In this document: positions 2,303-54,889 of the stretch, in pieces
Position numbering within the stretch: position 1 is the first letter of the stretch
How the letters are laid out: each line of letters begins with the position of its first letter
Origin: Candidatus Nanoarchaeia archaeon
Lineage (GTDB): Archaea; Nanobdellota; Nanobdellia; Pacearchaeales; GW2011-AR1
Length of the DNA stretch: 64,000 nucleotides
Direction: 5' to 3'
NCBI GenBank assembly: GCA_028711165.1
Contig: JAQTST010000001.1
Location: forward strand, 78,708-142,707
Notes under the pieces: model-generated
Databases searched by the model: none
What the model was told of the DNA's origin: nothing
What the model saw: only the letters and a program-made list of their open reading frames with translations
Program-made: the position numbers and the translations under genes

Positions 2303-2443
2303 TGCGCCGGTCGGGATTCGAACCCGAGTCATCTGCTTTCTTCTCGTCATCTGCTTGGAGAAAAAACTTTGCAGTTTTTTCCGCAACGGTTTTCTCCAAA
2401 AACACATTGGAAGGCAGAGATTCTGCCACTGAACTACCAGCGC
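2303..2443 (-). tRNA. tRNA-Gly(UCC) with a ~70-nt intron at the canonical 37/38 position (intron ~2337..2406)
   Basis: Hand fold of the reverse complement: acceptor GCGCUGG/CCGGCGC, D arm GUUC..GAAU, anticodon stem UCUGC/GCAGA, loop CUUCCAA, T arm UCGGG-UUCGAAU-CCCGA. The intron contains a 10-bp hairpin UUGGAGAAAA/UUUUCUCCAA. Confidence 0.8.
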
Positions 2444-3017: not shown

Positions 3018-3080
3018 ATATAAATTCTATTTTTTCAGCATATAAAAAGTTTTATAAACGAGTAATATTAGGTATTTTTG

Positions 3081-3193
3081 AAGACGGCCATAATAGGTTG
3101 GAAACACCTGTTCCCTTTCCGAACACAGAAGTTAAGCTTCCTATGTTTATGACTTTAGTGCCCCACAAGGTGCGAAATCATAAAGCTGTCTTT
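3081..3193 (+). rRNA. rrf: 5S rRNA (stand-alone, no 16S/23S nearby)
   Basis: Contains the hallmark CCGAACACAGAAGUUAAGC (loop B/helix III region). The terminal helix pairs GACGGC with GCUGUC. Length is ~113 nt. Confidence 0.85.
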
Positions 3194-3271
3194 CATATTT
3201 TTTTAGAAAGAGAAGAAAAATCTTTGATTCGATTTCATATTGTTTTTATAGTTATAATTCTAAGAAAGTAT

Positions 3272-7938: not shown

Positions 7939-7997
7939 ATGACAGAAAATAGAAAATTTTCAGCACAAATACAAAACCTTGGGGGTTTTGCATAATG
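7939..7997 (+). promoter_or_regulatory. Mini-ORF/hairpin coupling cassette, copy 1 (MTENRKFSAQIQNLGGFA*, stop TAA overlaps the next ATG)
   Basis: ATGACAGAA...TTTTCAGCACAAATACAAAAC-CTTGGGG-GTTTTGCATAATG. Stem CAAAAC/GTTTTG. One of four near-identical modules in the window. Confidence 0.6.
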
Positions 7998-8171
7998 GGG
8001 CAAAAATGTGTTTATTGCAATGCGGAAATTTTTGATGACAGAGCGATGCAAATCTGTGATAAATGCGGAGTCGGTGTGTGGGGGCCGAAACAATGGGCTC
8101 ATATAAAGAAAACAACAGATGATGCTCAAGAAAGAGGAGATTTGGCTTTATACAAAGACCAAGTCGTATAA
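7995..8171 (+). CDS. Small zinc-ribbon protein (58 aa, below the ORF-track cutoff)
   Basis: Hand translation MGQKCVYCNAEIFDDRAMQICDKCGVGVWGPKQWAHIKKTTDDAQERGDLALYKDQVV* has two CxxC pairs. The ATG is the TAATG of cassette copy 1. The antisense track ORF 7917..8129 is rejected. Confidence 0.5.
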   Translation: MGQKCVYCNAEIFDDRAMQICDKCGVGVWGPKQWAHIKKTTDDAQERGDLALYKDQVV

Positions 8172-9344: not shown

Positions 9345-9845
9345 ATGACAGAAGCAATACACAAAGGAAAACCAATGGGAGAAAAGTTTGAAGGAAAACT
9401 AATCAGAATTCTGTCAAAAGATATCGAGGGAGAATTGAAAGTTTATGTCGGACTTACAAAAATAAAAGGAATTTCATGGGGATTGGCAAATGCGATATGT
9501 AAAGTACTCCACCTCGATAAAAATAGAAAAATTGGTTCTTTAAGCAAAGAAGAAATAGAGAGCATCGGTAATTTTGTAAAAAATCCAACAATACCAGTAT
9601 ATTTGTTAAACAGAAGAATTGACATTGAAACAGGAAAAAACAAACACCTTATAGGAAATGATTTGGACTTGCAGAAAGAATTTGATATTGGAAGACTTAA
9701 GAAAATAAAAAGTTACAGAGGACTTAGACATGCAGTCGGACTTCCAGTGAGAGGACAAAGAACAAAGAGTCATTTCAGAAAGAACAAGAAGAAAGGAGTC
9801 GGAATTAAGAAGAAAACTAAACCAACAGAAGGAGTTAAAAAATGA
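9345..9845 (+). CDS. rps13: 30S ribosomal protein S13 (uS13)
   Basis: ..LIRILSKDIEGELKVYVGLTKIKGISWGLANAI.. and ..YRGLRHAVGLPVRGQRTKS... First gene of the S13-S4-S11-RpoD order. Confidence 0.95.
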   Translation: MTEAIHKGKPMGEKFEGKLIRILSKDIEGELKVYVGLTKIKGISWGLANAICKVLHLDKNRKIGSLSKEEIESIGNFVKNPTIPVYLLNRRIDIETGKNKHLIGNDLDLQKEFDIGRLKKIKSYRGLRHAVGLPVRGQRTKSHFRKNKKKGVGIKKKTKPTEGVKK

Positions 9846-10333: not shown

Positions 10334-10760
10334 GGAAATGGAAATGACAGAAGAAACTGAAAGCAAAAAAACAGAAAAAAAGAAAAGGGAAATCGAAGCT
10401 GTTCTGAATATTTATACGTCGTTTAACAATACAATCGCGCATGTTACAGACATGTCAGGAAGAACAATTGCAAAGATTACGGGCGGAATGGTTACCAAGC
10501 ACGGAAGACTTAAAGCTAATCCGACTATTGCTATTTTCATTGCAAAAAGAATTGCAGAAAGCTTGGAAGAGCTTGGAACTAAATCATTATACGTTAGAAT
10601 AAGAGCAAAAACAGGAAGCCCGACTTTGGGGCCTGGTGCACATGCGATAATAAAAAGTTTGACAAGAGAAGGATTCAAAATACTTAACATTCTTGATACA
10701 ACAAGATTTCCACGCGGAGGACCTAAGAAGAAAGGTGGAAGAAGAGGTAGGAGAGTATGA
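10326..10760 (+). CDS. rps11: 30S ribosomal protein S11 (uS11)
   Basis: ..LNIYTSFNNTIAHVTDMSGRTI..GPGAHAIIKSLTREGFKILNILDTTRFPRGGPKKKGGRRGRR. Confidence 0.95.
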   Translation: MSEEMEMTEETESKKTEKKKREIEAVLNIYTSFNNTIAHVTDMSGRTIAKITGGMVTKHGRLKANPTIAIFIAKRIAESLEELGTKSLYVRIRAKTGSPTLGPGAHAIIKSLTREGFKILNILDTTRFPRGGPKKKGGRRGRRV

Positions 10761-10827
10761 TAACCAAATTCAGACAAGTTGAATTAGAGGTAGAAGGGTT
10801 TAAAAATAAAATTTATAGAGTAATAAG

Positions 10828-11547
10828 ATGAAAACAATTGACAGAAAACAAAATCAGATAACATTCAGCGCAGAAATAGACGAGAGTCTTGCAAATGCAA
10901 TAAGAAGATACGTCGATGAAATTCCAATAATTGCAATTGACGACGTGGAAATTTCTATGAACGATTCTCCATTATACGACGAGACAATCGCGCACAGAAT
11001 GGGATTAATCCCTCTGAAAATGGATAAAAAAGCAGGCGGAAAAGATGAACCAATAAAGTTAGTTGCAAAGAAAGAAGGAGCAGTTTACTCTGAAGATTTA
11101 GACGGGAAAATAAAACCTGTTTATGGAAATATTCCAATTACTGTTTTAAAAAAAGGACAGGAAATTGAAATACTTGGAACTATAAGAACAGGAAAAGGAA
11201 ATGAGCATGTTAAATTTTCTCCGGGATTAATGTTTTACAGAAATTTAATGAAAGTTAAAGTGGACAAAGATTGTCCGAAAGAAATTGCCAATGCATGTCC
11301 AAGAGGATTGTTAAACTCTGACGGAGGAAAAATCACTGTTGTCGACGAGAATAAATGCGACATGTGTGAAGAATGCATTGAAGCATGCAGAAAGGCAGGG
11401 AAAAAATCAATAGAACTTACGCCTACAGGGGAACTTGTTATAACAGTAGAATCATTCGGGCAAATCAGCGAAGAGGAAATATTCAAGAGAGCGATTGAAA
11501 ACCTGACAGAAGATTTGAAAGAAGTTTCAAAGAAGATTTCTAAATAA
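10828..11547 (+). CDS. rpoD: DNA-directed RNA polymerase subunit D (Rpb3 homolog) with a Cys-rich ferredoxin-like domain
   Basis: ..LANAIRRYV..IPIIAIDDVEI..NDSPLYDETIAHRMGLIPL.. Cys clusters CPKEIANACPRG and CDMCEECIEAC. Confidence 0.9.
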   Translation: MKTIDRKQNQITFSAEIDESLANAIRRYVDEIPIIAIDDVEISMNDSPLYDETIAHRMGLIPLKMDKKAGGKDEPIKLVAKKEGAVYSEDLDGKIKPVYGNIPITVLKKGQEIEILGTIRTGKGNEHVKFSPGLMFYRNLMKVKVDKDCPKEIANACPRGLLNSDGGKITVVDENKCDMCEECIEACRKAGKKSIELTPTGELVITVESFGQISEEEIFKRAIENLTEDLKEVSKKISK

Positions 11548-11673: not shown

Positions 11674-11696
11674 TAAAGAAAACCCCTGTTTTTCTT
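11674..11696 (+). terminator. Hairpin plus T-run after tRNA-Leu
   Basis: AAAGAAAAC-CCCT-GTTTTTCTTT, an imperfect 9-bp stem followed by T residues. Confidence 0.3.
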
Positions 11697-11710
11697 TATC
11701 AATCTATCCT

Positions 11711-11784
11711 CGCGAGGACACCAAGGTTTCCTTCGCTTAATCTTCCTTTAAGTTTGGGTCACGCCTGATAAAAACTTTTATAAA
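11711..11784 (+). repeat. G+C-rich promoter-proximal element, copy A (family of 3), running into a TATA-like CTTTTATAAA
   Basis: CGCGAGGACACCAAGGTTTCCTTCGCTTAATCTTCCTTTAAGTTTGGGTCACGCCTGATAAAAACTTTTATAAA. About 80% identical by eye to 57174..57256 and related to 44159..44273. Confidence 0.6.
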
Positions 11785-11858
11785 CCCTTTTTCTCTCACA
11801 CTTTTATCTGCGAGCGCAAGCGATAGTAGAATTAATAATTCTATTAGCAGAACATTCA

Positions 11859-12227
11859 ATGAAAACTAAAACACAGATAGAAACACAGCTGAGAAGGAAG
11901 ACAAATCCTGAATTAGTGAAAACAATAATTGAAGCTAAGAAAAAAGAAAAGTGGGTTGAAGTTGCCGGGATTTTGTCAAGTCCGAGAGTTAAGAAAATTG
12001 ATGTTAATATTGACAAGATAGATAAAGAAGCAAAGGAAGGAGATGTAATTGTTGTTCCTGGAAAAGTTTTGTCAGAAGGAGAAATCAGCAAGAAAGTTAA
12101 AGTAGCTGCATTTTCTTTTTCAGAGAAAGCCAAAGAGAAAATATTAAAAGCAAAGGGAGAGGTTTTGACAATCATGGAAGAAATTAAAAAAAATCCTACA
12201 GGGAAAGGAATTAAGATAATAAAATGA
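11859..12227 (+). CDS. rpl18e: 50S ribosomal protein L18e (eL18)
   Basis: ..RRKTNPELVKTIIEAKK..VVVPGKVLSEGEISKKVKVAAFSFSEKAKEKI.. Conserved position between rpoD and rpl13. Confidence 0.85.
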   Translation: MKTKTQIETQLRRKTNPELVKTIIEAKKKEKWVEVAGILSSPRVKKIDVNIDKIDKEAKEGDVIVVPGKVLSEGEISKKVKVAAFSFSEKAKEKILKAKGEVLTIMEEIKKNPTGKGIKIIK

Positions 12228-12276
12228 CAGAAAATAAATTTTCAGCACAAATACAAAACAGGAGTTTTGCATAATG
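12224..12276 (+). promoter_or_regulatory. Mini-ORF/hairpin coupling cassette, copy 2 (MTENKFSAQIQNRSFA*)
   Basis: Its ATG overlaps the L18e TGA stop (ATGA) and its TAA overlaps the L13 ATG (TAATG). Hairpin CAAAAC-AGGA-GTTTTG. Confidence 0.6.
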
Positions 12277-12666
12277 AAAATCATCGACGGAAAAAATGCA
12301 ATCTTGGGAAGGCTCGCAGCATATGTAGCAAAAGAATCTATGAAAGGAGAAGAGCTTGCAATAGTAAACTGTGAACAGATATTCATAACAGGAAACAAAA
12401 AAAATATTTTTGAAAATTATGAAGGAAAGAGAAAAAGAGTCGGAAGCACGCAGAAAGGGCCGAAAGTTTCGAGAACAAATGAAAAAATTGTGAAGATGAC
12501 AATAAGAGGAATGCTTCCAAATGCGAGAAGGATGGGAAGAGGAAGAGACGCGATAAAAAGAATAAAATGCTACACTGGAATTCCAAAAGAATTTGAAGGG
12601 AAGGAAATGACTTCAATGGAAAGAAAGATTGTCAAAGGAATAAGAGTGAAGGATATTTCAAAATGA
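12274..12666 (+). CDS. rpl13: 50S ribosomal protein L13 (uL13)
   Basis: MKIIDGKNAILGRLAAYVAK..VVNCEQIFITG..RGMLP... Overlaps the rps9 start. Confidence 0.95.
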   Translation: MKIIDGKNAILGRLAAYVAKESMKGEELAIVNCEQIFITGNKKNIFENYEGKRKRVGSTQKGPKVSRTNEKIVKMTIRGMLPNARRMGRGRDAIKRIKCYTGIPKEFEGKEMTSMERKIVKGIRVKDISK

Positions 12667-13604: not shown

Positions 13605-14024
13605 TTATCTAATTCCCAACCTCTCCAATTTATTCTGAACATGATTGAACAGCGTCGATGAAACAATCGGCTGATGTGTTCCTTCGTGAATTTGGTTATT
13701 GAATTTTATTTTTCCGATATAAGTAAAATTTTTTAGGATTTTTTTTAGTCCATTCACAGAAAGATTATGCTTTTCTGCCAGAGTTCTCAGACTTAAGTTA
13801 TTATTCAAAAACGCTTCGAATATTTCTTCAATTTCGCGAAAGTTTTGCGCAGGAATTAATTTGCCGTCGGAGATTTGATAGCCGAAAGGAGCACGCGACA
13901 TAAGATTTCCGTGCATTGCTTTTTCAGACATAGATTTTTTTCTTGTGATATGAATTGATTTTAATTTTTCAATTTCTTTTTTCAGTTCCTCATTTTCTTT
14001 TCTTAAATCTTCAAGCTCGCCCAT
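13605..14024 (-). CDS. Recombinase-domain protein lacking the serine-recombinase catalytic domain (coiled-coil N-terminus)
   Basis: ..APFGYQISDGKLIPAQNFREIEEIFEAFLNNNLSLRTLAEKHNLSVNGLKKILKNFTYIGKIKFNN..HQPIVSSTLFNHVQNKL aligns with the C-terminal halves of 15239..15859 and 15849..16613. There is no YSRVS-type catalytic motif. Confidence 0.65.
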   Translation of the reverse strand: MGELEDLRKENEELKKEIEKLKSIHITRKKSMSEKAMHGNLMSRAPFGYQISDGKLIPAQNFREIEEIFEAFLNNNLSLRTLAEKHNLSVNGLKKILKNFTYIGKIKFNNQIHEGTHQPIVSSTLFNHVQNKLERLGIR

Positions 14025-14128: not shown

Positions 14129-15235
14129 ATGAACGACAATTCTGCAAGTGTAGCCAAATCAGAGGATGAACCTCCCAATCCGGCGATAGAGCCTGGAGGT
14201 ATTGTCTCGGCTGATCAGGTTTCTGGCATTTCTAAATTAAACAAAGATAATTTGAAGAAAATTTTTGACAAATATCCTGTCAGAATTACAAATTATTATT
14301 TCTCGCTGATTAAAGAAAAAGACGACGGTGTTTACAAACAGTGCATTCCGTCGATGGAAGAAATTTCTGATTTGGGGGGGGAGGAAGATCCGCTAAATGA
14401 GGAACCCGAACACCAGGTAAGACAGGGGGTTCCGTCGCTGTTGACGCACAGATATCCCGACAGGGTTCTATTTAGAATTTCAAATTCATGTGCGATGTAT
14501 TGCCGATTCTGCACGAGGAAAAGAAAAGTTGGAGATGTAAATAAACAGCCAACCTGGAAAGAAATTGGAAAGGCTTTGTTGTACATTCAGGAGCATGGAG
14601 AAATCAGAGATGTTATTCTTTCGGGCGGAGATCCGCTGATGCTTCCTGACAAAACACTTGACAAAATTTTGGCAGCAGTTTATTTAATAATCTCTAAAAG
14701 AGAAAACGGTATTATAAGAATAGGGACGAGGATTCCCTGCGTTTTGCCTCAGAGGATTACCCAAGAATTGTGTGATGTTCTAAAAAAGTATCATCCTATT
14801 TATCTGAACACGCATTTTAATCATCCTAATGAAATAACTACTGAAAGCAAGAGAGCTTGCGGGATGCTGGCTGACGCGGGAATTCCTGTCGGAAATCAGA
14901 CTGTTCTTCTGAAGGGAGTCAATGATAATCCTGAAATTATGAAAGAACTTATGCAGAGACTGATTAGTATTCGAGTCAGGCCGTATTATATTTATCAGTG
15001 CGATCCTGTGAGGGGAGCGAACCATTTTAGGACAAGGGTTGAGAAGGGGTTAGAAATTTACAAAGCATTAAGGGGACACACTTCTGGGTTGTGTGTTCCT
15101 CATTTTGTAATCGACGCACCGGGCGGAGGAGGGAAAATTCCACTACTTCCAGAATATCTGCAGACAATTACCGACGAGAAAGTTGTAATGAAAAATTACG
15201 AAGAAAAAGAATTTGAATATATTCAAGCGGATTAG
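14129..15235 (+). CDS. Lysine 2,3-aminomutase family radical-SAM enzyme (KamA/EpmB-like)
   Basis: CAMYCRFCTRKRKVG (CxxxCxxC in the KamA context), GGDPLML and ..YYIYQCDPVRGANHFRT... It is visibly more G+C-rich than its neighbours. Confidence 0.8.
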   Translation: MNDNSASVAKSEDEPPNPAIEPGGIVSADQVSGISKLNKDNLKKIFDKYPVRITNYYFSLIKEKDDGVYKQCIPSMEEISDLGGEEDPLNEEPEHQVRQGVPSLLTHRYPDRVLFRISNSCAMYCRFCTRKRKVGDVNKQPTWKEIGKALLYIQEHGEIRDVILSGGDPLMLPDKTLDKILAAVYLIISKRENGIIRIGTRIPCVLPQRITQELCDVLKKYHPIYLNTHFNHPNEITTESKRACGMLADAGIPVGNQTVLLKGVNDNPEIMKELMQRLISIRVRPYYIYQCDPVRGANHFRTRVEKGLEIYKALRGHTSGLCVPHFVIDAPGGGGKIPLLPEYLQTITDEKVVMKNYEEKEFEYIQAD

Positions 15236-42438: not shown

Positions 42439-42491
42439 ATGACTGAAACAGAAGTTTCAGCACAAATACAAAACAGGTGTTTTGCATAATG
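42439..42491 (+). promoter_or_regulatory. Mini-ORF/hairpin coupling cassette, copy 3 (MTETEVSAQIQNRCFA*; possible earlier in-frame ATG at 42427)
   Basis: ATGACTGAAACAGAAGTTTCAGCACAAATACAAAAC-AGGT-GTTTTGCATAATG. Confidence 0.6.
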
Positions 42492-43040
42492 ATAATGCTT
42501 CAGACTTCTGTATTTGGAGAGGGTGTTGTTGCAGACTTGCTTACTAAATGGGAAGCGCTTGGATTTTTTAGTTATCTTCTTCCGTTTTTGTTAGTTTTTG
42601 CACTGGTGTTTGGAATTCTGACGAGGACACAAATATTCAAAGAGAATAAAGCAGTGAATGCGATTATTGCCCTCGCTGTTGCATTTATGTCCCTGCAGTT
42701 TGATTTTGTTCCCACATTCTTCTCGCAAATATTTCCAAGACTTGGAGTCGGACTTGCAATTATTCTCGGAGTATTAATTATCATCGGACTCTTTGCTCCG
42801 CCTAACAGCAAGATAATAGATTACATTCTCCTCGGAGTTGGAGTTTTAGTAATTGGAGTAATAATTGTTCAGTCTGCTGCAGGAGCTGGCTGGGAATCGG
42901 CAGAATTCTGGGATAAATATTTCGGAGTAATCTCTGTGATAATTGTTCTTGCAATATTAGTATTCATAGTAGTTGGTGCATCTACCCAACCTAAACAACC
43001 AGACACTACTTATTACGCTCCTCATTGGAGAGGAAAATAA
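42489..43040 (+). CDS. Multi-TM membrane protein (hypothetical)
   Basis: Track ORF 42477..43040 trimmed to the ATG of the TAATG junction (MIMLQTSVF..). Confidence 0.5.
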   Translation: MIMLQTSVFGEGVVADLLTKWEALGFFSYLLPFLLVFALVFGILTRTQIFKENKAVNAIIALAVAFMSLQFDFVPTFFSQIFPRLGVGLAIILGVLIIIGLFAPPNSKIIDYILLGVGVLVIGVIIVQSAAGAGWESAEFWDKYFGVISVIIVLAILVFIVVGASTQPKQPDTTYYAPHWRGK

Positions 43041-49136: not shown

Positions 49137-49190
49137 ATTGCTTTGAGAAGATTTTTATAATTGTATTTTGTAATTATAACAGAGGTGATT

Positions 49191-51359
49191 ATGCCAAACG
49201 AAAAACCAAACATCGACGAGATTCTTAAGAAACATGCTGCGAGAATTGAGCAGAGCATAAAGACTGCTTCTGGTATTGAGAAAATAAATTACAGCCAGAG
49301 TTACTCGACGTTCAAAGAGGAAATGGCTCCTGAACTTACGAGATATGAGAAATGGTGCAAAAGTCTTGGGAATATTGTCAAGTTAAAAATTGCGCAAAAG
49401 GACCAGGCGAAAATACAGCGCTCTCTTGAAATCGCGCATCTTGATTTGGAACCATGGCAGCCAATAACTCTCTCGATAGTTTCTTTTTTCAGCGTTTTTA
49501 TCGTCGGACTTTTAGTTTCTGTTGCAATCTCGCTTTTCAGCGGGGGGCTTGAAAATTTCCCTATCTTCTTTTTTATTCTTGTAATGTTTGCGGGATTATT
49601 TCTTTTTTATTTCATCAACGGATATCCTGCGAGGCTGGCGAACAAATGGAGACTGAAAGCATCGTCGCAAATGGTTCCTGCAATTTTGTACATTGTTGTT
49701 TACATGAGGCATACTCCAAATCTTGAAAGGGCAATTTCTTTTGCGTCACAGCATCTTCAATATCCCCTCGCACTTGACTTGAAAAAAGTTTTTTACAATG
49801 TTGAACTTGGGAAATTCTCGACGATAAAGGAGAGTCTTGATAATTATCTTGACACCTGGAGAGATTATTCGACTGAATTTATTGAGTCTTTTCACCTTAT
49901 TGAAAGCAGTCTGTTTGAGCCTGATGACGGGAAAAGAATTGTAACTCTTGAGAAAGCTTTGCAGGTTGTTCTCGACGGTGTTTATGACAAAATGCTGAGA
50001 TTCACGCACGAAGTCAGAAGTCCATTGACAAATGTTTACATGCTTGGTGTTGTACTTCCTACTCTTGGACTTGCACTTCTTCCTCTTGCTTCTGCAATGG
50101 TTGGAGATTTTCTGAAATGGTATCACGTACTGATTTTATTTGATTTGATAATTCCATTTTTTGTTTTCTATTTAACAGACAAAGTTTTGTTCCTTCGCCC
50201 TGGCGGATATGGGGAAACAGAACTCATCGAGAGAAATCCTCTTTATCCTGTTTACAAGGACAAGAAACATTATGCCAAAGCCTTTTTGATTTGCATTCCT
50301 TTTCTTATCATCGGACTTCTGCCTTTATTTTTTCAGTCGCCTCTGGCTCCTGCATTAGGATTGAAAAATGATTATACTTTTTCAGAATTAGGATTAACCT
50401 TTTTTGGAGATGAGCCGTTTTTTGGATTCAGAGATGTTAACGGAAAACTTACAGGGCCATTCGGCGTCGGTGCTCTGATATTAAGTGTATTTTTTATTCT
50501 CGGTGTTGCACTGTTTTTTTCAATTGCTTTCAAAGACAGGACAAAAGAATTAATCAAGGAAAGACAAAAAACCAAACAGCTTGAAGCAGAATTTAATAAT
50601 TCATTATTCCAGCTTGGAAACAGAATTGGGAACGGGGTTCCTCCTGAACTCGCATTCAGTAAAGTTGCAGAATCTACCAAAGGACTGAAGACAGAGGATT
50701 TTTTCAAAAGAGTCAATTATAATGTTCTGCAGATGGGAATGTCTGTTGAGGGTGCTATCTTCGACGAGAAAAGAGGAGCAATTGCTTATTATCCGTCGGA
50801 GTTGATTGCTACCAGCATGAGGATACTTGTTGAATCTGCGAAGAAAGGATTGAATATTGCAGCACTTAGTTTAATCAGCATTTCAGAATATGTCAAGAAC
50901 ATAAACAAAATTACAGACAGGCTGAGAGATATGCTTGCTGAAATTATTTCTGACATGAAAAGCAACATGACTTTCCTTGCTCCGCTGCTGTCAGGAGTTG
51001 TAATCGGACTTGCAGCGATGATAACAGGAATATTAAGCAAATTAAATCTTGCACAGGCTGGCGGTGCAGAAACAATTGCCGGCGTCGGAAACCTGAATGC
51101 AATCCTGAATATTTTTGACATGACAAAAATGATTCCTCCTTATCTGCTTCAGATAATAATTGGATTTTACATCATTGAAATAATTTTTATCCTGACAAAT
51201 GCTCTCGTGATAATTGATTCGGGAGAGGACAAACTTGAGACGACAAACAAGACAGGAATTAATTTGAGAGCAGGAATCGGGCTTTATGCAGTAACTGCTT
51301 TGCTTGCTGTGATTGCATTGTTCCTGCTGACATCGATTGTGCTCGGCGGACTTGCTTGA
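49191..51359 (+). CDS. Polytopic pilus-assembly membrane protein (PilC/FlaJ/TadC, T2SS-F-like)
   Basis: First ATG after SD AGAGGTGA. Two cytoplasmic helical segments are each followed by a TM cluster. It lies immediately downstream of the ATPase. Confidence 0.6.
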   Translation: MPNEKPNIDEILKKHAARIEQSIKTASGIEKINYSQSYSTFKEEMAPELTRYEKWCKSLGNIVKLKIAQKDQAKIQRSLEIAHLDLEPWQPITLSIVSFFSVFIVGLLVSVAISLFSGGLENFPIFFFILVMFAGLFLFYFINGYPARLANKWRLKASSQMVPAILYIVVYMRHTPNLERAISFASQHLQYPLALDLKKVFYNVELGKFSTIKESLDNYLDTWRDYSTEFIESFHLIESSLFEPDDGKRIVTLEKALQVVLDGVYDKMLRFTHEVRSPLTNVYMLGVVLPTLGLALLPLASAMVGDFLKWYHVLILFDLIIPFFVFYLTDKVLFLRPGGYGETELIERNPLYPVYKDKKHYAKAFLICIPFLIIGLLPLFFQSPLAPALGLKNDYTFSELGLTFFGDEPFFGFRDVNGKLTGPFGVGALILSVFFILGVALFFSIAFKDRTKELIKERQKTKQLEAEFNNSLFQLGNRIGNGVPPELAFSKVAESTKGLKTEDFFKRVNYNVLQMGMSVEGAIFDEKRGAIAYYPSELIATSMRILVESAKKGLNIAALSLISISEYVKNINKITDRLRDMLAEIISDMKSNMTFLAPLLSGVVIGLAAMITGILSKLNLAQAGGAETIAGVGNLNAILNIFDMTKMIPPYLLQIIIGFYIIEIIFILTNALVIIDSGEDKLETTNKTGINLRAGIGLYAVTALLAVIALFLLTSIVLGGLA

Positions 51360-51402
51360 ACTGATTAATAACATTTATTAATTCTTTAACCATTTTTTTA
51401 TT

Positions 51403-51552
51403 ATGAAAAAAAAGGGGATTATCTCGGAATATCTTCCGTGGCTTTTGATTGGAATAATAATTCTCGCGATAGTCATGATAAGCATTTTCCTGTTGAAGGG
51501 GAAAGGTTTTGAATTCATTGACAGAATAAAAGAAATTTTTGGAGGAAGATAA
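51403..51552 (+). CDS. Small pilin-like protein (49 aa, below the track cutoff)
   Basis: MKKKG|IISEYLPWLLIGIIILAIVMISIFLL.. has a class III signal-like N-terminus. Confidence 0.45.
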   Translation: MKKKGIISEYLPWLLIGIIILAIVMISIFLLKGKGFEFIDRIKEIFGGR

Positions 51553-51721
51553 AATCGCAGAATTAACCGTCGAACAACTGATAAAAATAATTCTCGGAAT
51601 TCTCGTAGTTGTGGCTGTCTCAGTCGGACTTTATTTTTTCTTCAAGGATAAAATTATAGAATTTTTTCAGGGATTGTCTCCTCCTGAAATTTTTCGGGTT
51701 TTAATAAATGATAAAAGATAA
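51539..51721 (+). CDS. Small TM protein (needs a TTG start; uncertain)
   Basis: Track ORF with a hydrophobic helix ..LIKIILGILVVVAVSVGLYFFF... Confidence 0.3.
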   Translation: MEEDKIAELTVEQLIKIILGILVVVAVSVGLYFFFKDKIIEFFQGLSPPEIFRVLINDKR

Positions 51722-52199
51722 ACGCGGATTTTTACTTGGGGAAGAAACTCTGAAGATGGTAATTGCGGTAATCTGCATTGTTTTTTTGGTTTATCTTCTG
51801 GTTGCGGTTTATCTTAATGTTACAGGACAGCAGAAGCTGAAAGAAGCGCAGGCAATTGTAAACGGCGAGCACGGAATTATTGCTGAAATAAACAGGCTTA
51901 ATCTCGGGGGAAATTATAGTGCAGACGGATTAGTCGTGCCAAATCCTGCTGACTGGTATGTTTTTAGTTTTGTCGGCGACGATAAAAAACCAAATTCATG
52001 CATCCAGCAAAACTGCATCTGCATCTGCGAAAATGCTTTTCCTGATTTGTTTGACTGGCAGATAAAAAGATGCGATGAAAAAGGAGTCTGCTCCAACGTC
52101 GGAAATCTGCAAAAATTTGAAAAGATGAAAATAGAAAAGGCAGGAATTATAATTTCAATCAACAAAGTAAATGAACAGATAATAATCGAAAAAAAATGA
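51708..52199 (+). CDS. Pilin-like protein
   Basis: MIKDKRG|FLLGEETLKMVIAVICIVFLVYLLV.. plus a Cys-containing globular part. Confidence 0.55.
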   Translation: MIKDKRGFLLGEETLKMVIAVICIVFLVYLLVAVYLNVTGQQKLKEAQAIVNGEHGIIAEINRLNLGGNYSADGLVVPNPADWYVFSFVGDDKKPNSCIQQNCICICENAFPDLFDWQIKRCDEKGVCSNVGNLQKFEKMKIEKAGIIISINKVNEQIIIEKK

Positions 52200-52290
52200 C
52201 TGAACAGGAAATTCACTTCAGACAGGAAGTCAGCCGTTCCGCACAGAAATGCGGACAGCACAAATACAAAATAGGAGATTTTGCATAATG
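52196..52290 (+). promoter_or_regulatory. Mini-ORF/hairpin coupling cassette, copy 4 (30 codons, variant)
   Basis: Its ATG overlaps the upstream TGA. It reads ..CAGCACAAATACAAAAT-AGGAG-ATTTTGCATAATG and has an extra hairpin TCCGCA-cagaaa-TGCGGA. Confidence 0.6.
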
Positions 52291-52389
52291 AGTCTCGACG
52301 ATATGATAAAATATATAATTTGGATTGCATTTTTTATCTTAGCTCTTGCCGGATTATATTTTGTGCTTAAGCAGATAGGAGTACTATGA
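52288..52389 (+). CDS. 33-aa single-TM peptide (below the track cutoff)
   Basis: MSLDDMIKYIIWIAFFILALAGLYFVLKQIGVL*. It starts at the cassette TAATG, and its stop overlaps the next ATG. Confidence 0.4.
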   Translation: MSLDDMIKYIIWIAFFILALAGLYFVLKQIGVL

Positions 52390-53279
52390 TGAAAATAGAT
52401 AAGAGGATAAATAAACGAGGTGATATCACGACGCAGCAGATTGTACTGCTGATAATTTTAATCGCGAGTTTTGCAGTTATTTTATTTTTTATTTTCCGAC
52501 TTAATCTCGGGCAGACAACTGAGAAAGAAGTGTGCCACAATTCTGTTTTGACGAGGGGAAGCAAAGTTCTTCCTGGAGAATCTGTTCCTCTAAACTGCAA
52601 GACAACTTATATCTGCATCAGCGAAGACGGAACGTGCGAACAGGTGACTTCTCCTGACATAAAAAGAACTGAAAATAAAGATGAAGTTTTTAATGCATTA
52701 GCGAATGAAATGGCAGACTGCTGGTGGGTTTTTGGCGAGGGGAAAATAAATTACGTCGGTGAAGAGCTTTTCTCAAAACTTTACTGCTCTTTGTGCTCGC
52801 AGGTTTCTTTCGACGACAGCGTCGGCAAAATTTTTCCCAGCGGAGAAATAGACAAGACAGAATTTTACAGATATCTTGCAACTACAAATATTTCAAACAA
52901 GGATTTGACTTACCTGGATTATCTCGTTGGGTTAAAAAATTCACAGGCAATAGAAGACACTTTGACAACTAACCAATCTGCATTTGGCAAGATAAATATC
53001 AACAAACAATCCTATGTTGTGATGGGAACAATCAGCAAAGTCAGCGTCGTGCAATGGGCAGTTGCGGGAGCAGGAATTGCTGTTCTCGCTGTTGTGACTG
53101 CAGGAGCTGCGATTCCGGTAGTTCTTGTTGTGGGAGCTGCCGGAGGAGTTGGAGGACATTTCATCGGAACAATAATTGATGGAGTTGGCGGACAGAGTTA
53201 CCTTTCTCCGACGATAATCGAAGCAAATTCTGCAGACTTTAATTCATTAAAATGCGAGTCGATACAGACGCTGGCGTAA
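52386..53279 (+). CDS. Pilin-like protein with Gly/Ala/Val-rich C-terminal hydrophobic region
   Basis: ..INKRG|DITTQQIVLLIILIASFAVILFFI.. and C-terminus ..AGAGIAVLAVVTAGAAIPVVLVVGAAGGVGG.. Confidence 0.55.
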   Translation: MMKIDKRINKRGDITTQQIVLLIILIASFAVILFFIFRLNLGQTTEKEVCHNSVLTRGSKVLPGESVPLNCKTTYICISEDGTCEQVTSPDIKRTENKDEVFNALANEMADCWWVFGEGKINYVGEELFSKLYCSLCSQVSFDDSVGKIFPSGEIDKTEFYRYLATTNISNKDLTYLDYLVGLKNSQAIEDTLTTNQSAFGKININKQSYVVMGTISKVSVVQWAVAGAGIAVLAVVTAGAAIPVVLVVGAAGGVGGHFIGTIIDGVGGQSYLSPTIIEANSADFNSLKCESIQTLA

Positions 53280-53280
53280 A

Positions 53281-53673
53281 ATGAAATCCAAAAAAGGAAC
53301 AATCCTCATAGAAAATATTATTTTTATCATTCTTAATATTCTTTTTATTTCAATTCTTATGCTGTTCCTGTTTAGACAAGGAAGCGGGGCAATTGTGCTC
53401 GAGCAGAGTTACGCAAAAAATATTGCACTGCTGATTGATTCTTCACGCCCTGTAACTGAAATGAAACTTAATATGAAAGAAGGATTTAATCTTGCTGAAG
53501 CAAACGGAATTAATGCCGAAGATATTGTGAAAATAAATGGAAATATTGTGACTGTAAAACTTAGCGGACAGGGAGGATATGACTATTCTTTTTTCAACAA
53601 CGTCGACGTTACTGTTTATCCTGATATTTATCCTGAAAAAAATTATGTAATTAAAATAAATGGGTTCAAATGA
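53281..53673 (+). CDS. Pilin-like protein
   Basis: MKSKKG|TILIENIIFIILNILFISIL.. has Glu at +5 after the putative cleavage site. Confidence 0.6.
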   Translation: MKSKKGTILIENIIFIILNILFISILMLFLFRQGSGAIVLEQSYAKNIALLIDSSRPVTEMKLNMKEGFNLAEANGINAEDIVKINGNIVTVKLSGQGGYDYSFFNNVDVTVYPDIYPEKNYVIKINGFK

Positions 53674-54194
53674 AACTTTACAAAAATAAAAGAGCAGATA
53701 AGATTCTTTCTGTTTACTGGTTTGCAATTTTGATAATTGTAGCCGGAGGAATTTTCGCGATGGTTTACACTTTTTACGGGAGTCCTTATGACATTCGGGA
53801 AATAGAAGCAGAACTTCTGACAAACAGAATTGCTGACTGCATTTCTTATGCCGGAAAAATGAATTCAGAACTTGTTGTCAACGGACAATTCACGAGTGAA
53901 AATAATTACCTTGAGAAATGCCATTTGATTCTCAACTCGACAGAATGGGAAGAGGAGCAATTTTATTCGGAAGTTAATTTTTACAAAATTCAAAATATGA
54001 ACACGCCGGTTTTTAATGTTAAAAAAGGAAATGCCAAATGGCTCTCAAGCTGTGTGCTCCAGGAAAACAAGGAAGAGAAAAAACTTGCACAATGCGTCGA
54101 GAGAAGTTTTTATTCTGTTGATAATTCAAATAATCAATACATAATTAAAATTTTGTCTGTCGTCAGGAAATCAGAAAAAAATGTCAAAATATAA
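53670..54194 (+). CDS. Pilin-like protein
   Basis: ..NKRA|DKILSVYWFAILIIVAGGIFAMV.. Confidence 0.5.
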   Translation: MKLYKNKRADKILSVYWFAILIIVAGGIFAMVYTFYGSPYDIREIEAELLTNRIADCISYAGKMNSELVVNGQFTSENNYLEKCHLILNSTEWEEEQFYSEVNFYKIQNMNTPVFNVKKGNAKWLSSCVLQENKEEKKLAQCVERSFYSVDNSNNQYIIKILSVVRKSEKNVKI

Positions 54195-54471
54195 ATTTTT
54201 AAAAAATCATAAAATTCGCGACAAAAAAGCACAGGTTGGAGAAACGGTTTCATGGATAGTTGCGACGGTGATTGTACTCGGAATCATGATTTTTTTTATT
54301 TACGTTTCAATTTTAATTTCAAAAACAAAAATGATTCAGACTTTAAACCTGCAGTCAGATGTCGCAGATAAACCTGAGTTGCTGATGTATAAAACTTCGC
54401 TAAGCCACCAGCTCGCAGGAAATTTAAACAAAGAAATTATTGATAATATTTTGAAGGAGGAAAATGGTTAA
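54181..54471 (+). CDS. Pilin-like protein
   Basis: ..RDKKA|QVGETVSWIVATVIVLGIMIFFI.. Confidence 0.5.
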   Translation: MSKYKFLKNHKIRDKKAQVGETVSWIVATVIVLGIMIFFIYVSILISKTKMIQTLNLQSDVADKPELLMYKTSLSHQLAGNLNKEIIDNILKEENG

Positions 54472-54763
54472 ATTAAAAATTTTGAAAAATAAAAAGGGAG
54501 ACATCTCTATAACTATTCTCGTAATCGGAGTTTTCCTTGTCTGCGGAATTGCGACATTTAGTTTTATCAATTCAATGATTCAGACGAGAAATTCTTTTGT
54601 GGGAATTGGGATGGTTGAAAAAATAAATATGCAGACAGAAGGAAAAATTTTCAATGGTGAAAGTCCGAACGGATTATATCTTGAAAAAAACATGACAGAA
54701 GGATTTGCGTTCTGGGGCAAGGAAGTTTTATTATTCTCAGTAGAGTATAAACTCAGACCTTAA
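54464..54763 (+). CDS. Pilin-like protein
   Basis: ..KNKKG|DISITILVIGVFLVCGI.. Confidence 0.5.
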   Translation: MVKLKILKNKKGDISITILVIGVFLVCGIATFSFINSMIQTRNSFVGIGMVEKINMQTEGKIFNGESPNGLYLEKNMTEGFAFWGKEVLLFSVEYKLRP

Positions 54764-54771
54764 ATTAATTT

Positions 54772-54889
54772 TGATTTCGCTCGTCAATCCCACCCAACTC
54801 GAGCCTCCACTCATTGCGATTAATTTTCGTTGGCATTCGTGAAAACTCTCGCCCGCCCCAAAGGGAATTAATTTGTACTCGCGAAATCA
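54772..54889. ncRNA. G+C-rich structured intergenic element (candidate ncRNA or 5' leader; strand undetermined)
   Basis: 9-bp closing helix TGATTTCGC (54772-54780) / GCGAAATCA (54881-54889). Internal hairpin TTTTC-GTTGGCATTCGT-GAAAA. C-runs (CCCACCC, CGCCCGCCCC) stand out in an otherwise AT-rich genome. Confidence 0.4.

Follow-up and report, generated by a model that had tools for sequence, protein, structure and literature searches.

Short dispersed repeats at start codons in Pacearchaeota-like DPANN archaea, probably made transparent to ribosomes by a coupled mini-ORF

Introduction

What is a 53-nucleotide (nt) element doing exactly between the genes for ribosomal proteins L18e and uL13, at a junction where most related archaea have the two genes simply overlapping? 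The question arises from a 64,000-nt stretch of Candidatus Nanoarchaeia archaeon (assembly GCA_028711165.1, contig JAQTST010000001.1, positions 78,708-142,707), called the window below; all positions are window coordinates, and L-numbers (L003, L018, L024 and so on) are labels of related loci. The window is AT-rich archaeal DNA with a typical S13-S4-S11-RpoD-tRNA-L18e-L13-S9 cluster. A first-pass annotation, made from the sequence alone, had noticed four copies of a module there, each a mini open reading frame (mini-ORF) running from ATG to TAATG and ending in a hairpin, and had suggested a generic, possibly dispersing cassette for translational coupling or regulation.

Our analysis documents a repeat family in exact position at start codons, with filled and empty versions of the same sites, a maintained reading frame, covarying hairpins and a Shine-Dalgarno (SD) motif at constant spacing. 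Three of its features had been missed: a second covarying hairpin, a core that is read in three frames with compensating insertions and deletions (indels), and dispersed, sporadic insertion. We think it probable that these are short non-autonomous dispersed repeats of a Pacearchaeota/Woesearchaeota-like DPANN clade, rendered translationally transparent by termination-reinitiation; translation of the mini-ORF, restart by termination-reinitiation, a near-neutral effect on the host and the mode of copying are what we infer beyond the observations.

Results

Four copies of one element in the window

All four copies were found in place, on the + strand. Each is an ORF of 16-30 codons that starts ATGAC[AT]GAA and ends TAATG, as the first-pass annotation had described, and the mini-ORFs read MTENRKFSAQIQNLGGFA, MTENKFSAQIQNRSFA, MTETEVSAQIQNRCFA and MTEQEIHFRQEVSRSAQKCGQHKYKIGDFA. 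The core CAGCACAAATACAAAAY has four perfect matches in the window and no other within ≤3 mismatches, against a mean of 0.88 in shuffled-sequence controls, and the 3' end TTTTGCATAATG has exactly four matches, with 0 mismatches. A covariance model (CM), a step that had been proposed earlier, was built from 19 copies and scores those in the window at 79.7, 76, 72.2 and 44.9-50.7 bits; the next-best match there reaches only 19 bits (E=0.07), and we therefore count four copies and no more.

The copy that raises our question, copy 2 (12224-12276, +; 53 nt, 79.7 bits), is a complete element of what we call type A. It joins the L18e gene (11859-12227, +; Pfam PF17135, PF00828) to the uL13 gene (12274-12666, +; PF00572), whose start agrees with that of its homologues (MKIIDG). 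Its mini-ORF (12224-12274, +) comprises 16 codons plus TAA and encodes MTENKFSAQIQNRSFA; the ATG overlaps the L18e TGA (ATGA), and in the TAATG (12272-12276, +) the mini-ORF stop shares one base with the uL13 start. Between these ends, hairpin 1 (12228-12245, +; C-A-GAAAA / TTTTC-A-G) is variable in sequence and covaries between copies. It is followed by the linker CAGCACAAATA (12243-12253, +), the first three bases of which are the 3' foot of hairpin 1 and the remainder unpaired, and then by hairpin 2 (12254-12269, +; CAAAAC / GTTTTG), with AGGAG in its loop (12260-12264), 9 nt before the uL13 ATG.

The other three copies have the same layout in different surroundings. Copy 1 (7939-7997, +; 59 nt) occupies the start codon of a 58-residue zinc-ribbon ORF (7995-8171), 3' of a conserved promoter-like TATA and a short leader. 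Copy 3 (42439-42491, +; 53 nt) precedes a 183-residue membrane protein (42489-43040), and its hairpin 1 is a perfect 7-bp stem, CTGAAAC/GTTTCAG. Copy 4 (52196-52290, +; 95 nt) is a type-A element with a nested 42-nt insert; its ATG shares bases with the stop of ORF 51708-52199, confirming the ATGA overlap that had been claimed for copies 2 and 4, and its TAATG starts a 33-residue hydrophobic ORF (52288-52389). The insert, sub-element X (52216-52257, +; 42 nt), keeps the frame and consists of CAGACAGGAAGTCAGCC (52219-52235) and a hairpin TCCGCA..TGCGGA (52238-52255). Pfam also confirmed the identity of uS9; the remaining neighbour genes of the window copies gave no Pfam family.

A scan of the window for other bridging mini-ORFs gave only the four copies and ORF 10757-10831 (+), of 24 codons, which overlaps the uS11 stop at its beginning and the RpoD start at its end, each time as ATGA. 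The intergenic region that it covers includes a TATA-like box; the ORF is unrelated to the element in sequence, was not seen by eye in L019 and is probably fortuitous. Around copy 4 extends a run of co-oriented genes (49161-54800, +), mostly with ATGA-type overlaps, in which a 732-residue polytopic membrane protein comes first and many small proteins, each with a single hydrophobic helix at the N-terminus, come after it; these are pilin/archaellin-like in appearance, and none has a Pfam family.

A family in related archaea

The database was scanned, at one representative genome per prokaryotic species, with the pattern AGCACAAATACAAAA N4-11 TTTTGCA. Seventeen loci matched, of which 14 belong to metagenome-assembled genomes (MAGs) labelled Pacearchaeota, Woesearchaeota or Nanoarchaeota, about 10 DPANN MAGs altogether. 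All 14 archaeal matches continue with TAATG and have ATGAC[AT]GA[AG] upstream at the right distance, neither of which the pattern demanded; the three bacterial ones show none of the module's other features and presumably arose by chance. Since the pattern required the exact core, the identity of the core among database matches is partly a matter of ascertainment. With uL13 as bait we gathered 80 related metagenome loci, their uL13 being 59-84% identical, and the model, which also recovers homologous copies in related genomes, has 40 matches in 622 kb of related loci, among them six in 20 kb of L024 and five in 20 kb of L027. The finding is real and far beyond chance. Assemblies from many projects contain it, and it is no artefact of a single one.

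Elements measure 50-59 nt and long mosaics 86-188 nt, giving the family a range of about 50-190 nt; their G+C content is 25-42%. Every copy is co-oriented with the ORF downstream of it, and many lie within the S13-S4-S11-RpoD-L18e-L13-S9 cluster. The constant + strand remarked on earlier is true of the window and means only this co-orientation. The 5' end overlaps an upstream ORF by ATGA in about 10 of 29 copies, while the rest are preceded by TAA(A), by a TATA box or by another copy. At the 3' end TAATG is the rule, with two decayed or orphan copies as the only exceptions. The proteins encoded downstream at pattern loci are uL1, uL22, SerRS, aIF5A, a Rad50-like ATPase, a T2SSE secretion/pilus ATPase, a methyltransferase, a metallopeptidase and zinc-ribbon proteins, and in the syntenic clusters described below they include uL13, uS9, uS4, uS11, RpoD and L21e. 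Across genomes the downstream genes are thus functionally unrelated, and the view of a generic rather than gene-specific cassette stands.

The first-pass annotation had recognised no described RNA family, and neither do we. Rfam gave no match at gathering score in the window and none even at E≤1 in L011, L014 and L015, which hold seven copies. Literature searches with sequence strings and for DPANN/Pacearchaeota repeats and short ORFs brought up no description of the element, the string matches concerning neither archaea nor the element. Exact-pattern scans of viral contigs with three patterns and blastn against phage and plasmid records found no match, and hence no evidence for a viral or plasmid vehicle. 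A direct-repeat search for analogous families in the distant loci L063, L069 and L095 returned low-complexity noise only. L095, a distant relative without the element, has a perfect 95-nt tandem duplication (listed at 1225-1414 and 14799-14988) and, separately, a (GTCT)n microsatellite.

Filled and empty sites

Six syntenic ribosomal-protein clusters from related metagenomic genomes were aligned junction by junction. At L18e>uL13 the window has 49 extra bases precisely between two ATGA; the same junction is empty, with a clean ATGA overlap, in L019, L020, L021, L027 and most of the 80 relatives (L019, at 82% identity, reads ...AATAATAAAATGATAATAATCGAC). Where it is filled the occupant varies: type A in the window, a type-A variant (A') in L018, and long type-B mosaics in L024, L032 and L037. 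The presence of different subfamilies at the same junction argues for repeated insertion.

The other junctions tell the same story of sporadic occupation. The site before the zinc-ribbon gene is occupied in the window only, those before L21e, uS11 and RpoD in L027, that before the next ORF in L024, and that before uL13 in the window, L018 and L024. Before uS4, the window has a bare ATGA overlap (9842-9845, +), L024 and L027 have the element, L021 has a short deletion derivative, and L019 and L069 have diverged mini-ORFs. Before uS9, the window is again empty (ATGA overlap at 12663-12666, +); in the clusters the element is found in L019 and L024, and among the wider set of loci in L019/L020 and L022-L024. 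The pattern of occupancy differs in every one of the six genomes, and L024 and L027, whose uL13 proteins are 90% identical, nevertheless have just one of eight occupied sites in common. The earlier suggestion of a dispersing element thus gains its support from orthologous junctions filled in some close relatives and empty in others, and from the change of subfamily at one junction.

Genes with promoters of the leaderless type show what happens to the start codon. An ATG lies 21-24 nt from the TATA hexamer whether the site is empty, where it is that of the gene, or filled, where it is that of the element; given this equal spacing, the element ATG always takes the position of the gene ATG, which is moved behind the element TAA. 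As for the flanks, 20 of 29 copies have ATGA on both sides and nine have ATGG on the right; only ATG is always repeated, and that is part of any start.

An open frame without a conserved peptide

The mini-ORF is open from ATG to TAATG in 31 of the 35 distinct model matches that could be evaluated, and its length across the family ranges from 15 to 61 codons. The first-pass annotation had pointed to the similar peptides of copies 1-3. The similarity is there, as a by-product of nucleotide conservation: copy 4 reads the core in another frame, and over the family identical core nucleotides are read as SAQIQN, STNTK or QHKYK, in three frames. The nested inserts of 42 nt (window copy 4) and 45 nt (L027) both keep the frame and are likewise read in different frames in different copies. 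Of the peptide, nothing recurs but M-T/S-E/K at its start and F-A/S at its end.

The lengths of the segments on either side of the core compensate for one another. Expressed as remainders modulo 3 of the 5' and 3' segments, the classes (1,1), (0,2) and (2,0) occur 16, six and four times, combinations that would break the frame being few; among distinct length combinations, 11 of 13 are in frame (P=2e-4 against a chance of one in three). The middle of the peptide changes with the frame while the nucleotides stay, and what is conserved is therefore RNA or DNA together with openness, not amino acids. Judged from the sequences, selection appears to act on nucleotide sequence and structure plus an open frame, which is the signature of an ORF that is translated but non-coding.

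Two hairpins, a linker and a Shine-Dalgarno motif

The hairpin CAAAAY/RTTTTG of the first-pass annotation is predicted by folding in all four window copies. Folding gives two local hairpins in copies 1-3: hairpin 1 directly after the mini-ORF start (GAAAAY..RTTTTC), and hairpin 2, in which CAAAAY is followed by a loop with AGGAG, AGGTG or GGGGG and then by RTTTTG, with a T-run behind it. Between them the linker CAGCACAAATA is invariant and mostly single-stranded. The SD-like run in the loop, for which a distance of 9-10 nt had been given, is indeed present; its spacing was measured at 9-11 nt before the downstream ATG in all copies.

Taken one by one, the folds are weak (-5 to -12 kcal/mol, z-scores -1.1 to -2.5). 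In an alignment of 31 copies drawn from many genomes, pairing holds in 90.9% of cells, compared with 30-48% when the partners are slid; the former figure leans towards structure in that this alignment was fitted to the covariance model. Changes on both sides of a pair affect 11 of 16 pairs overall, including seven of the eight that form hairpin 1, and hairpin 2 has a covarying closing pair (CG/UA/AU). An independent MAFFT alignment of 19 copies gave the same picture of covariation.

Subfamilies, mosaics and decayed copies

Type-A elements start ATGACAGAA..TTTCAGCAC and type-B elements ATGAGCAAACAGGAAATTTGCCAC, and the subfamilies are spread across genomes. The long variants (L027:8618-8712, L024:9909-10003, L032:2697-2883, and L037), with mini-ORFs of up to 61 codons, are mosaics with two kinds of sub-element: X, in which CAGACAGGAAGTCAGCC is joined to a variable hairpin, and Y, a hairpin of 10 bp that covaries and has ATATGGATTA as its loop. 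The copy before uL13 is built as B+Y in L024, as B+X+Y+X in L032 and as B+X in L037. The Y stem has compensating changes between L024 and L027, and the X motif recurs at other positions and in other frames in L027:7389-7486, L032 and L037. Tandem pairs are present in L003, L007, L011, L014 and L015, the ATG of the first TAATG being the ATG of the next element.

There are exceptions to the layout: two copies have a premature stop and one has a -8 overlap (ATGAGTAA). An orphan copy (L024:5809-5861) lies in the L21e promoter region, where relatives have the empty site AAAAGATAG / TTTTTTAAATG; it ends GCATAGAG instead of GCATAATG, has AGATAG flanking it on both sides and carries GCATA before ATGAC, as if copied from a tandem pair. 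In L023 a 54-nt copy (1736-1789) runs in frame into uS9, giving it a 17-residue N-terminal extension. L023 is 99.87% identical to L022 over 3.8 kb, and three of the four mismatches and the sole gap fall inside the 53-nt uS9 copy (L022: 2576-2628), which suggests gene conversion between copies or an artefact of assembly.

We also note that the 5' end of uS13 (window 9345-9400) resembles the 5' end and core of the element without hairpin 1 (window ATGACAGAAGCAATACACAAAGG; L019 ATGACAGAACAAATACAAACA). The resemblance is seen elsewhere at L019:6709 and at L069:6733 and 7218; in this clade uS13 has an N-terminal extension of about 17 residues (MTEQIQ...), and over 26 nt the S13>S4 mini-ORF of L069 matches the uS13 start region with 85% identity. 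Either uS13 took up an old copy of the element in frame, or its start gave rise to the element.

Other features of the window

Three further regions deserve mention. Just downstream of the ribosomal-protein cluster, a 139-residue ORF (13605-14024, -), for which Pfam gives only "Recombinase" (PF07508), looks like a fragment of a serine recombinase. Between tRNA-Leu and L18e (11674-11858, +), a conserved promoter-like box AACTTTTATAAACC is followed by a leader of about 75 nt with conserved blocks TTTATCTGCGAGC ... GATAGTAG and hairpin potential; it is found in all six syntenic genomes, has no Rfam match, and may be a ribosomal-protein operon leader. Lastly, Rfam reports a 141-nt tRNA (52 bits) at 2303-2443 (-), clustered with two other tRNAs and a 5S rRNA (3080-3194). 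As ARAGORN does not report it, this is probably an intron-containing tRNA gene.

Discussion

How an insertion at a start codon could be tolerated

A repeat that settles on the start codons of ribosomal-protein genes would have to leave their translation intact, and the layout of the element suggests how. Each copy would inherit the local mode of initiation, be it an ATGA overlap, a leaderless 5' AUG some 22 nt downstream of a TATA box, a short leader or TAATG from another copy, and the ribosome meant for the gene would start on the mini-ORF (15-61 codons) instead. It would open the two weak hairpins on its way, terminate at UAA and then start again on the overlapping AUG (UAAUG), helped by the SD motif in the loop of hairpin 2, 9-11 nt upstream; hairpin 2 may also stop the SD from pairing with the following gene. 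An insertion of this kind would be translationally "transparent", and copies could survive in essential operons, even between ribosomal-protein genes.

The proposed steps have precedents. As the relevant sections of PMC12548453 report, citing Huber et al., stop/start overlaps of 4 or 1 nt couple genes by termination-reinitiation in archaea as in bacteria, with a contribution from the SD, and coupling fades beyond about 30 nt. In engineered bicistronic designs, whatever gene lies downstream is reliably expressed behind a short fore-cistron that ends in an SD and TAATG; translation of the fore-cistron and the SD are both needed, and the same applies to a leaderless version (PMC10367133). Of the two roles the first-pass annotation had offered for its cassette, coupling is favoured by the TAATG and by a frame kept open through compensating indels, features of layout that point to it; the regulatory alternative we do not favour.

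Several observations weigh against such a simple passenger. The copy at S13>S4 is identical over 53 nt in L024 and L027, in which the flanking genes are 77-80% identical (P ~1e-4); this hints at purifying selection or gene conversion, either of which fits it better than a purely neutral passenger does. The coupling model gives no explanation for the strict nucleotide conservation of the linker CAGCACAAATA; like hairpin 1, the linker might carry a signal for the copying process, and covariation of the hairpins among copies may reflect what source copies need for being copied rather than translation. Copies related by descent inflate simple counts, and the length-class test is the fairer one. 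Frame maintenance and geometry are the sole grounds on which we propose translation of the mini-ORF and reinitiation. At individual sites precise loss rather than gain may have produced the pattern. We found no transposase, no terminal inverted repeats of convincing length and no unambiguous target duplication, the flanking repeat being only the ATG/ATGA that any start codon supplies.

A bolder version of the transparent-repeat explanation makes the element an active mobile one that homes to start codons (ATG/ATGA). Start-codon position would then be more than the outcome of random insertion and later selection, and hairpins and linker would be recognition signals for an enzyme or for RNA-mediated copying. 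Some lineages would have domesticated the element as a portable "leaderless-to-Shine-Dalgarno" adaptor, which grows by in-frame mosaics and occasionally donates N-terminal extensions. We hold this version to be unlikely.

Alternative explanations

The alternative that survives best has the host, rather than the element, as beneficiary: copies would be plug-in translation enhancers or global regulatory leaders, retained for raising or co-regulating expression, with a lineage-specific factor (a protein, a small RNA (sRNA) or the ribosome) binding the SD hairpin and linker. It would accommodate the identity of the S13>S4 copy in L024 and L027 amid diverged flanking genes, the occupation of that junction in five of the six genomes, and the nucleotide conservation of linker and hairpin 2 in MAGs with different NCBI labels, with the proviso that the exact core in database matches is partly ascertainment. 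Four of 10 downstream proteins scanned, at loci ascertained by the pattern, are translation-related (uL1, uL22, SerRS and aIF5A), and engineered equivalents raise expression (PMC10367133). A host-selected device is, however, hard to reconcile with occupancy so sporadic that genomes with 90% identical uL13 share one site in eight, and with most relatives lacking the element at every junction; the downstream genes have no function in common, orphan, decayed and fused copies exist, and a search of both strands of the window revealed no complementary sequence. We consider this explanation improbable.

A riboswitch, an RNA thermometer or a leader-peptide attenuator of the downstream gene is much harder to defend. 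Two covarying hairpins with an SD inside one of them invite the comparison, and the A-U-rich stem could melt with temperature; the SD, however, lies in a loop and is not sequestered, the element is only some 50 nt long with weak folds (z -1.1 to -2.5), and Rfam offers no match even at E≤1. Nor is there any association with gene function; orthologous genes in close relatives are without the element, and the three-frame core leaves no conserved sensing or arrest peptide apart from the terminal (G/S/D)FA. We regard regulation of this sort as very improbable.

A signal acting in DNA fares slightly worse still. In the A-rich core, some 16-25 nt before the downstream ATG, ACAAATACAAAA could be taken for an internal promoter (a TFB recognition element (BRE) with TATA) for a leaderless start at ATG, and a T-run follows hairpin 2; a terminator and a recombination site are other versions. 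The recognisable promoters here and in relatives are, however, TTTAAA/TTTATA boxes 21-24 nt before ATG, which the core does not resemble, and its distance to ATG varies by several nt with loop length, which leaderless starts would not tolerate. A DNA signal has no role for frame maintenance, SD or TAATG, and copies sit inside tight operons that relatives transcribe without them.

Least probable of all is a multi-copy gene for a functional micropeptide of 16-18 residues, for although the ORF is open in nearly all copies and its ends (MTE... and ...FA) recur, the middle changes wholly with the frame (SAQIQN, STNTK, QHKYK) over unchanged nucleotides, and the nested inserts too are read in different frames.

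Some individual candidates could be set aside. By eye, there is no CUGA D box of a C/D-box sRNA, the cores of hammerhead or other small ribozymes are absent, a kink-turn (K-turn)/L7Ae site lacks its tandem G-A pairs, and the bulge-helix-bulge (BHB) splicing motif is not formed. A preQ1-I-like hairpin with A-rich tail has neither Rfam support nor gene association. For IS200/IS605-type ends the 5' flank offers no constant tetranucleotide unless it is ATG(A) itself, which the orphan copy contradicts. As a MITE (miniature transposable element with inverted repeats) the element would have no more than a weak, gapped similarity of ATGACAGAAAA to the reverse complement of TTTTGCAT, judged by eye, and no larger element with the same ends was found in 0.7 Mb of loci, whole genomes not having been searched.

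Comparison with known systems

The closest parallel is provided by MIRUs (interspersed repetitive units of mycobacteria), which are said to insert at start codons and to have a translationally coupled internal ORF (Supply et al., 1997, as cited in passages of PMC12548453 and PMC3184786). PMC3184786, where it deals with them, reviews their size, copy number, location in operons, the empty sites known from M. leprae, the tetranucleotide repeats at their flanks and the overlap of ORF ends. The archaeal element, compared here with the MIRU description only, agrees in functional terms on size and copy number, on placement and orientation in operons, on overlapping ORF ends, and on empty sites and insertion at start codons: both are short (40-100 bp) interspersed repeats in polycistronic operons, co-oriented with the genes, with a small ORF overlapping the stop of one neighbour and the start of the other, with filled and empty orthologous sites and tandem copies, and with no known transposase. 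They differ in host, an AT-rich archaeon as opposed to a GC-rich actinobacterium, and in coupling geometry, which is -1 (TAATG) here and -4 in MIRUs. The archaeal element moreover has its own SD in a hairpin loop and a second covarying hairpin, also settles on leaderless starts, and forms mosaics with nested sub-elements. Because the host is archaeal (L18e, tRNA/5S context) and the element has a G+C content of 25-42%, homology to the mycobacterial MIRU is very unlikely.

In architecture the element matches the bicistronic design (BCD; Mutalik et al., 2013, as presented in the sections of PMC10367133 concerned with it): on sequence layout, it too appears to have a fore-cistron of about 16-20 codons, a second SD in its 3' end and TAATG, and to serve any gene. 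In the leaderless BCD the fore-cistron begins at the 5' AUG of the transcript, as copies behind TATA boxes appear to do. The BCD is, by contrast, engineered, bacterial and not mobile, and its rationale, that the helicase of the ribosome removes context-dependent structure, was, in those sections, tested in bacteria and may or may not carry over to the archaeal element.

Other dispersed repeats are less similar. Neisseria REP2 and the Borrelia inverted repeat (IR) (PMC3184786) are dispersed, lack clear terminal inverted repeats and have two internal stem-loops, as here; REP2, however, supplies promoter, ribosome binding site and the gene's own ATG in a fusion, not a mini-ORF that stops on the gene start, and it is tied to a co-regulated gene set. 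MITEs and the repetitive extragenic palindromic (REP) and bacterial interspersed mosaic elements (BIMEs) resemble our family as small non-autonomous hairpin repeats with filled and empty sites and, in the BIME, mosaic construction. Rickettsia palindromic elements (RPEs) keep the frame and can thereby be tolerated within coding sequence or beside it. Unlike MITEs, REPs and RPEs, the archaeal element has no convincing terminal inverted repeats and no related insertion sequence that we could find; in place of the palindromes of REP, BIME and RPE, in REP and BIME extragenic, it has a defined layout, ATG ... SD ... TAATG; and unlike RPEs it does not lie inside proteins, the apparent uS9 fusion of L023 (one assembly) and possibly the uS13 N-terminus excepted. 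Natural upstream ORFs (uORFs) coupled to a gene, in which a short uORF has no other apparent role than to hand the ribosome to an overlapping start (Huber et al., 2019, 2023, as cited in the coupling sections of PMC12548453; the iraD uORF, in the part of PMC5574718 describing it), are single gene-specific arrangements, whereas ours is one cassette copied to many unrelated genes; according to the former source, coupling has been shown in Haloferax and E. coli for overlaps of the -4 and -1 geometries.

Significance

The family is apparently undescribed, a MIRU-like, start-codon-resident repeat of Pacearchaeota-like DPANN archaea. It would be the first archaeal start-codon repeat to exploit translational coupling, an idea that so far rests essentially on the poorly studied MIRUs, and the natural counterpart, in uncultivated archaea with reduced genomes, of the independently devised BCD and of its leaderless form. 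The same essential junctions, existing both with and without the element, would amount to natural experiments on archaeal termination-reinitiation, and the fast turnover of the copies would make them strain-level markers. For annotation it matters that the element would account for many tiny, spurious ORFs and odd gaps of 50 nt in the operons of DPANN archaea. It also raises the question of how a 50-nt element without an enzyme is copied so precisely to ATG.

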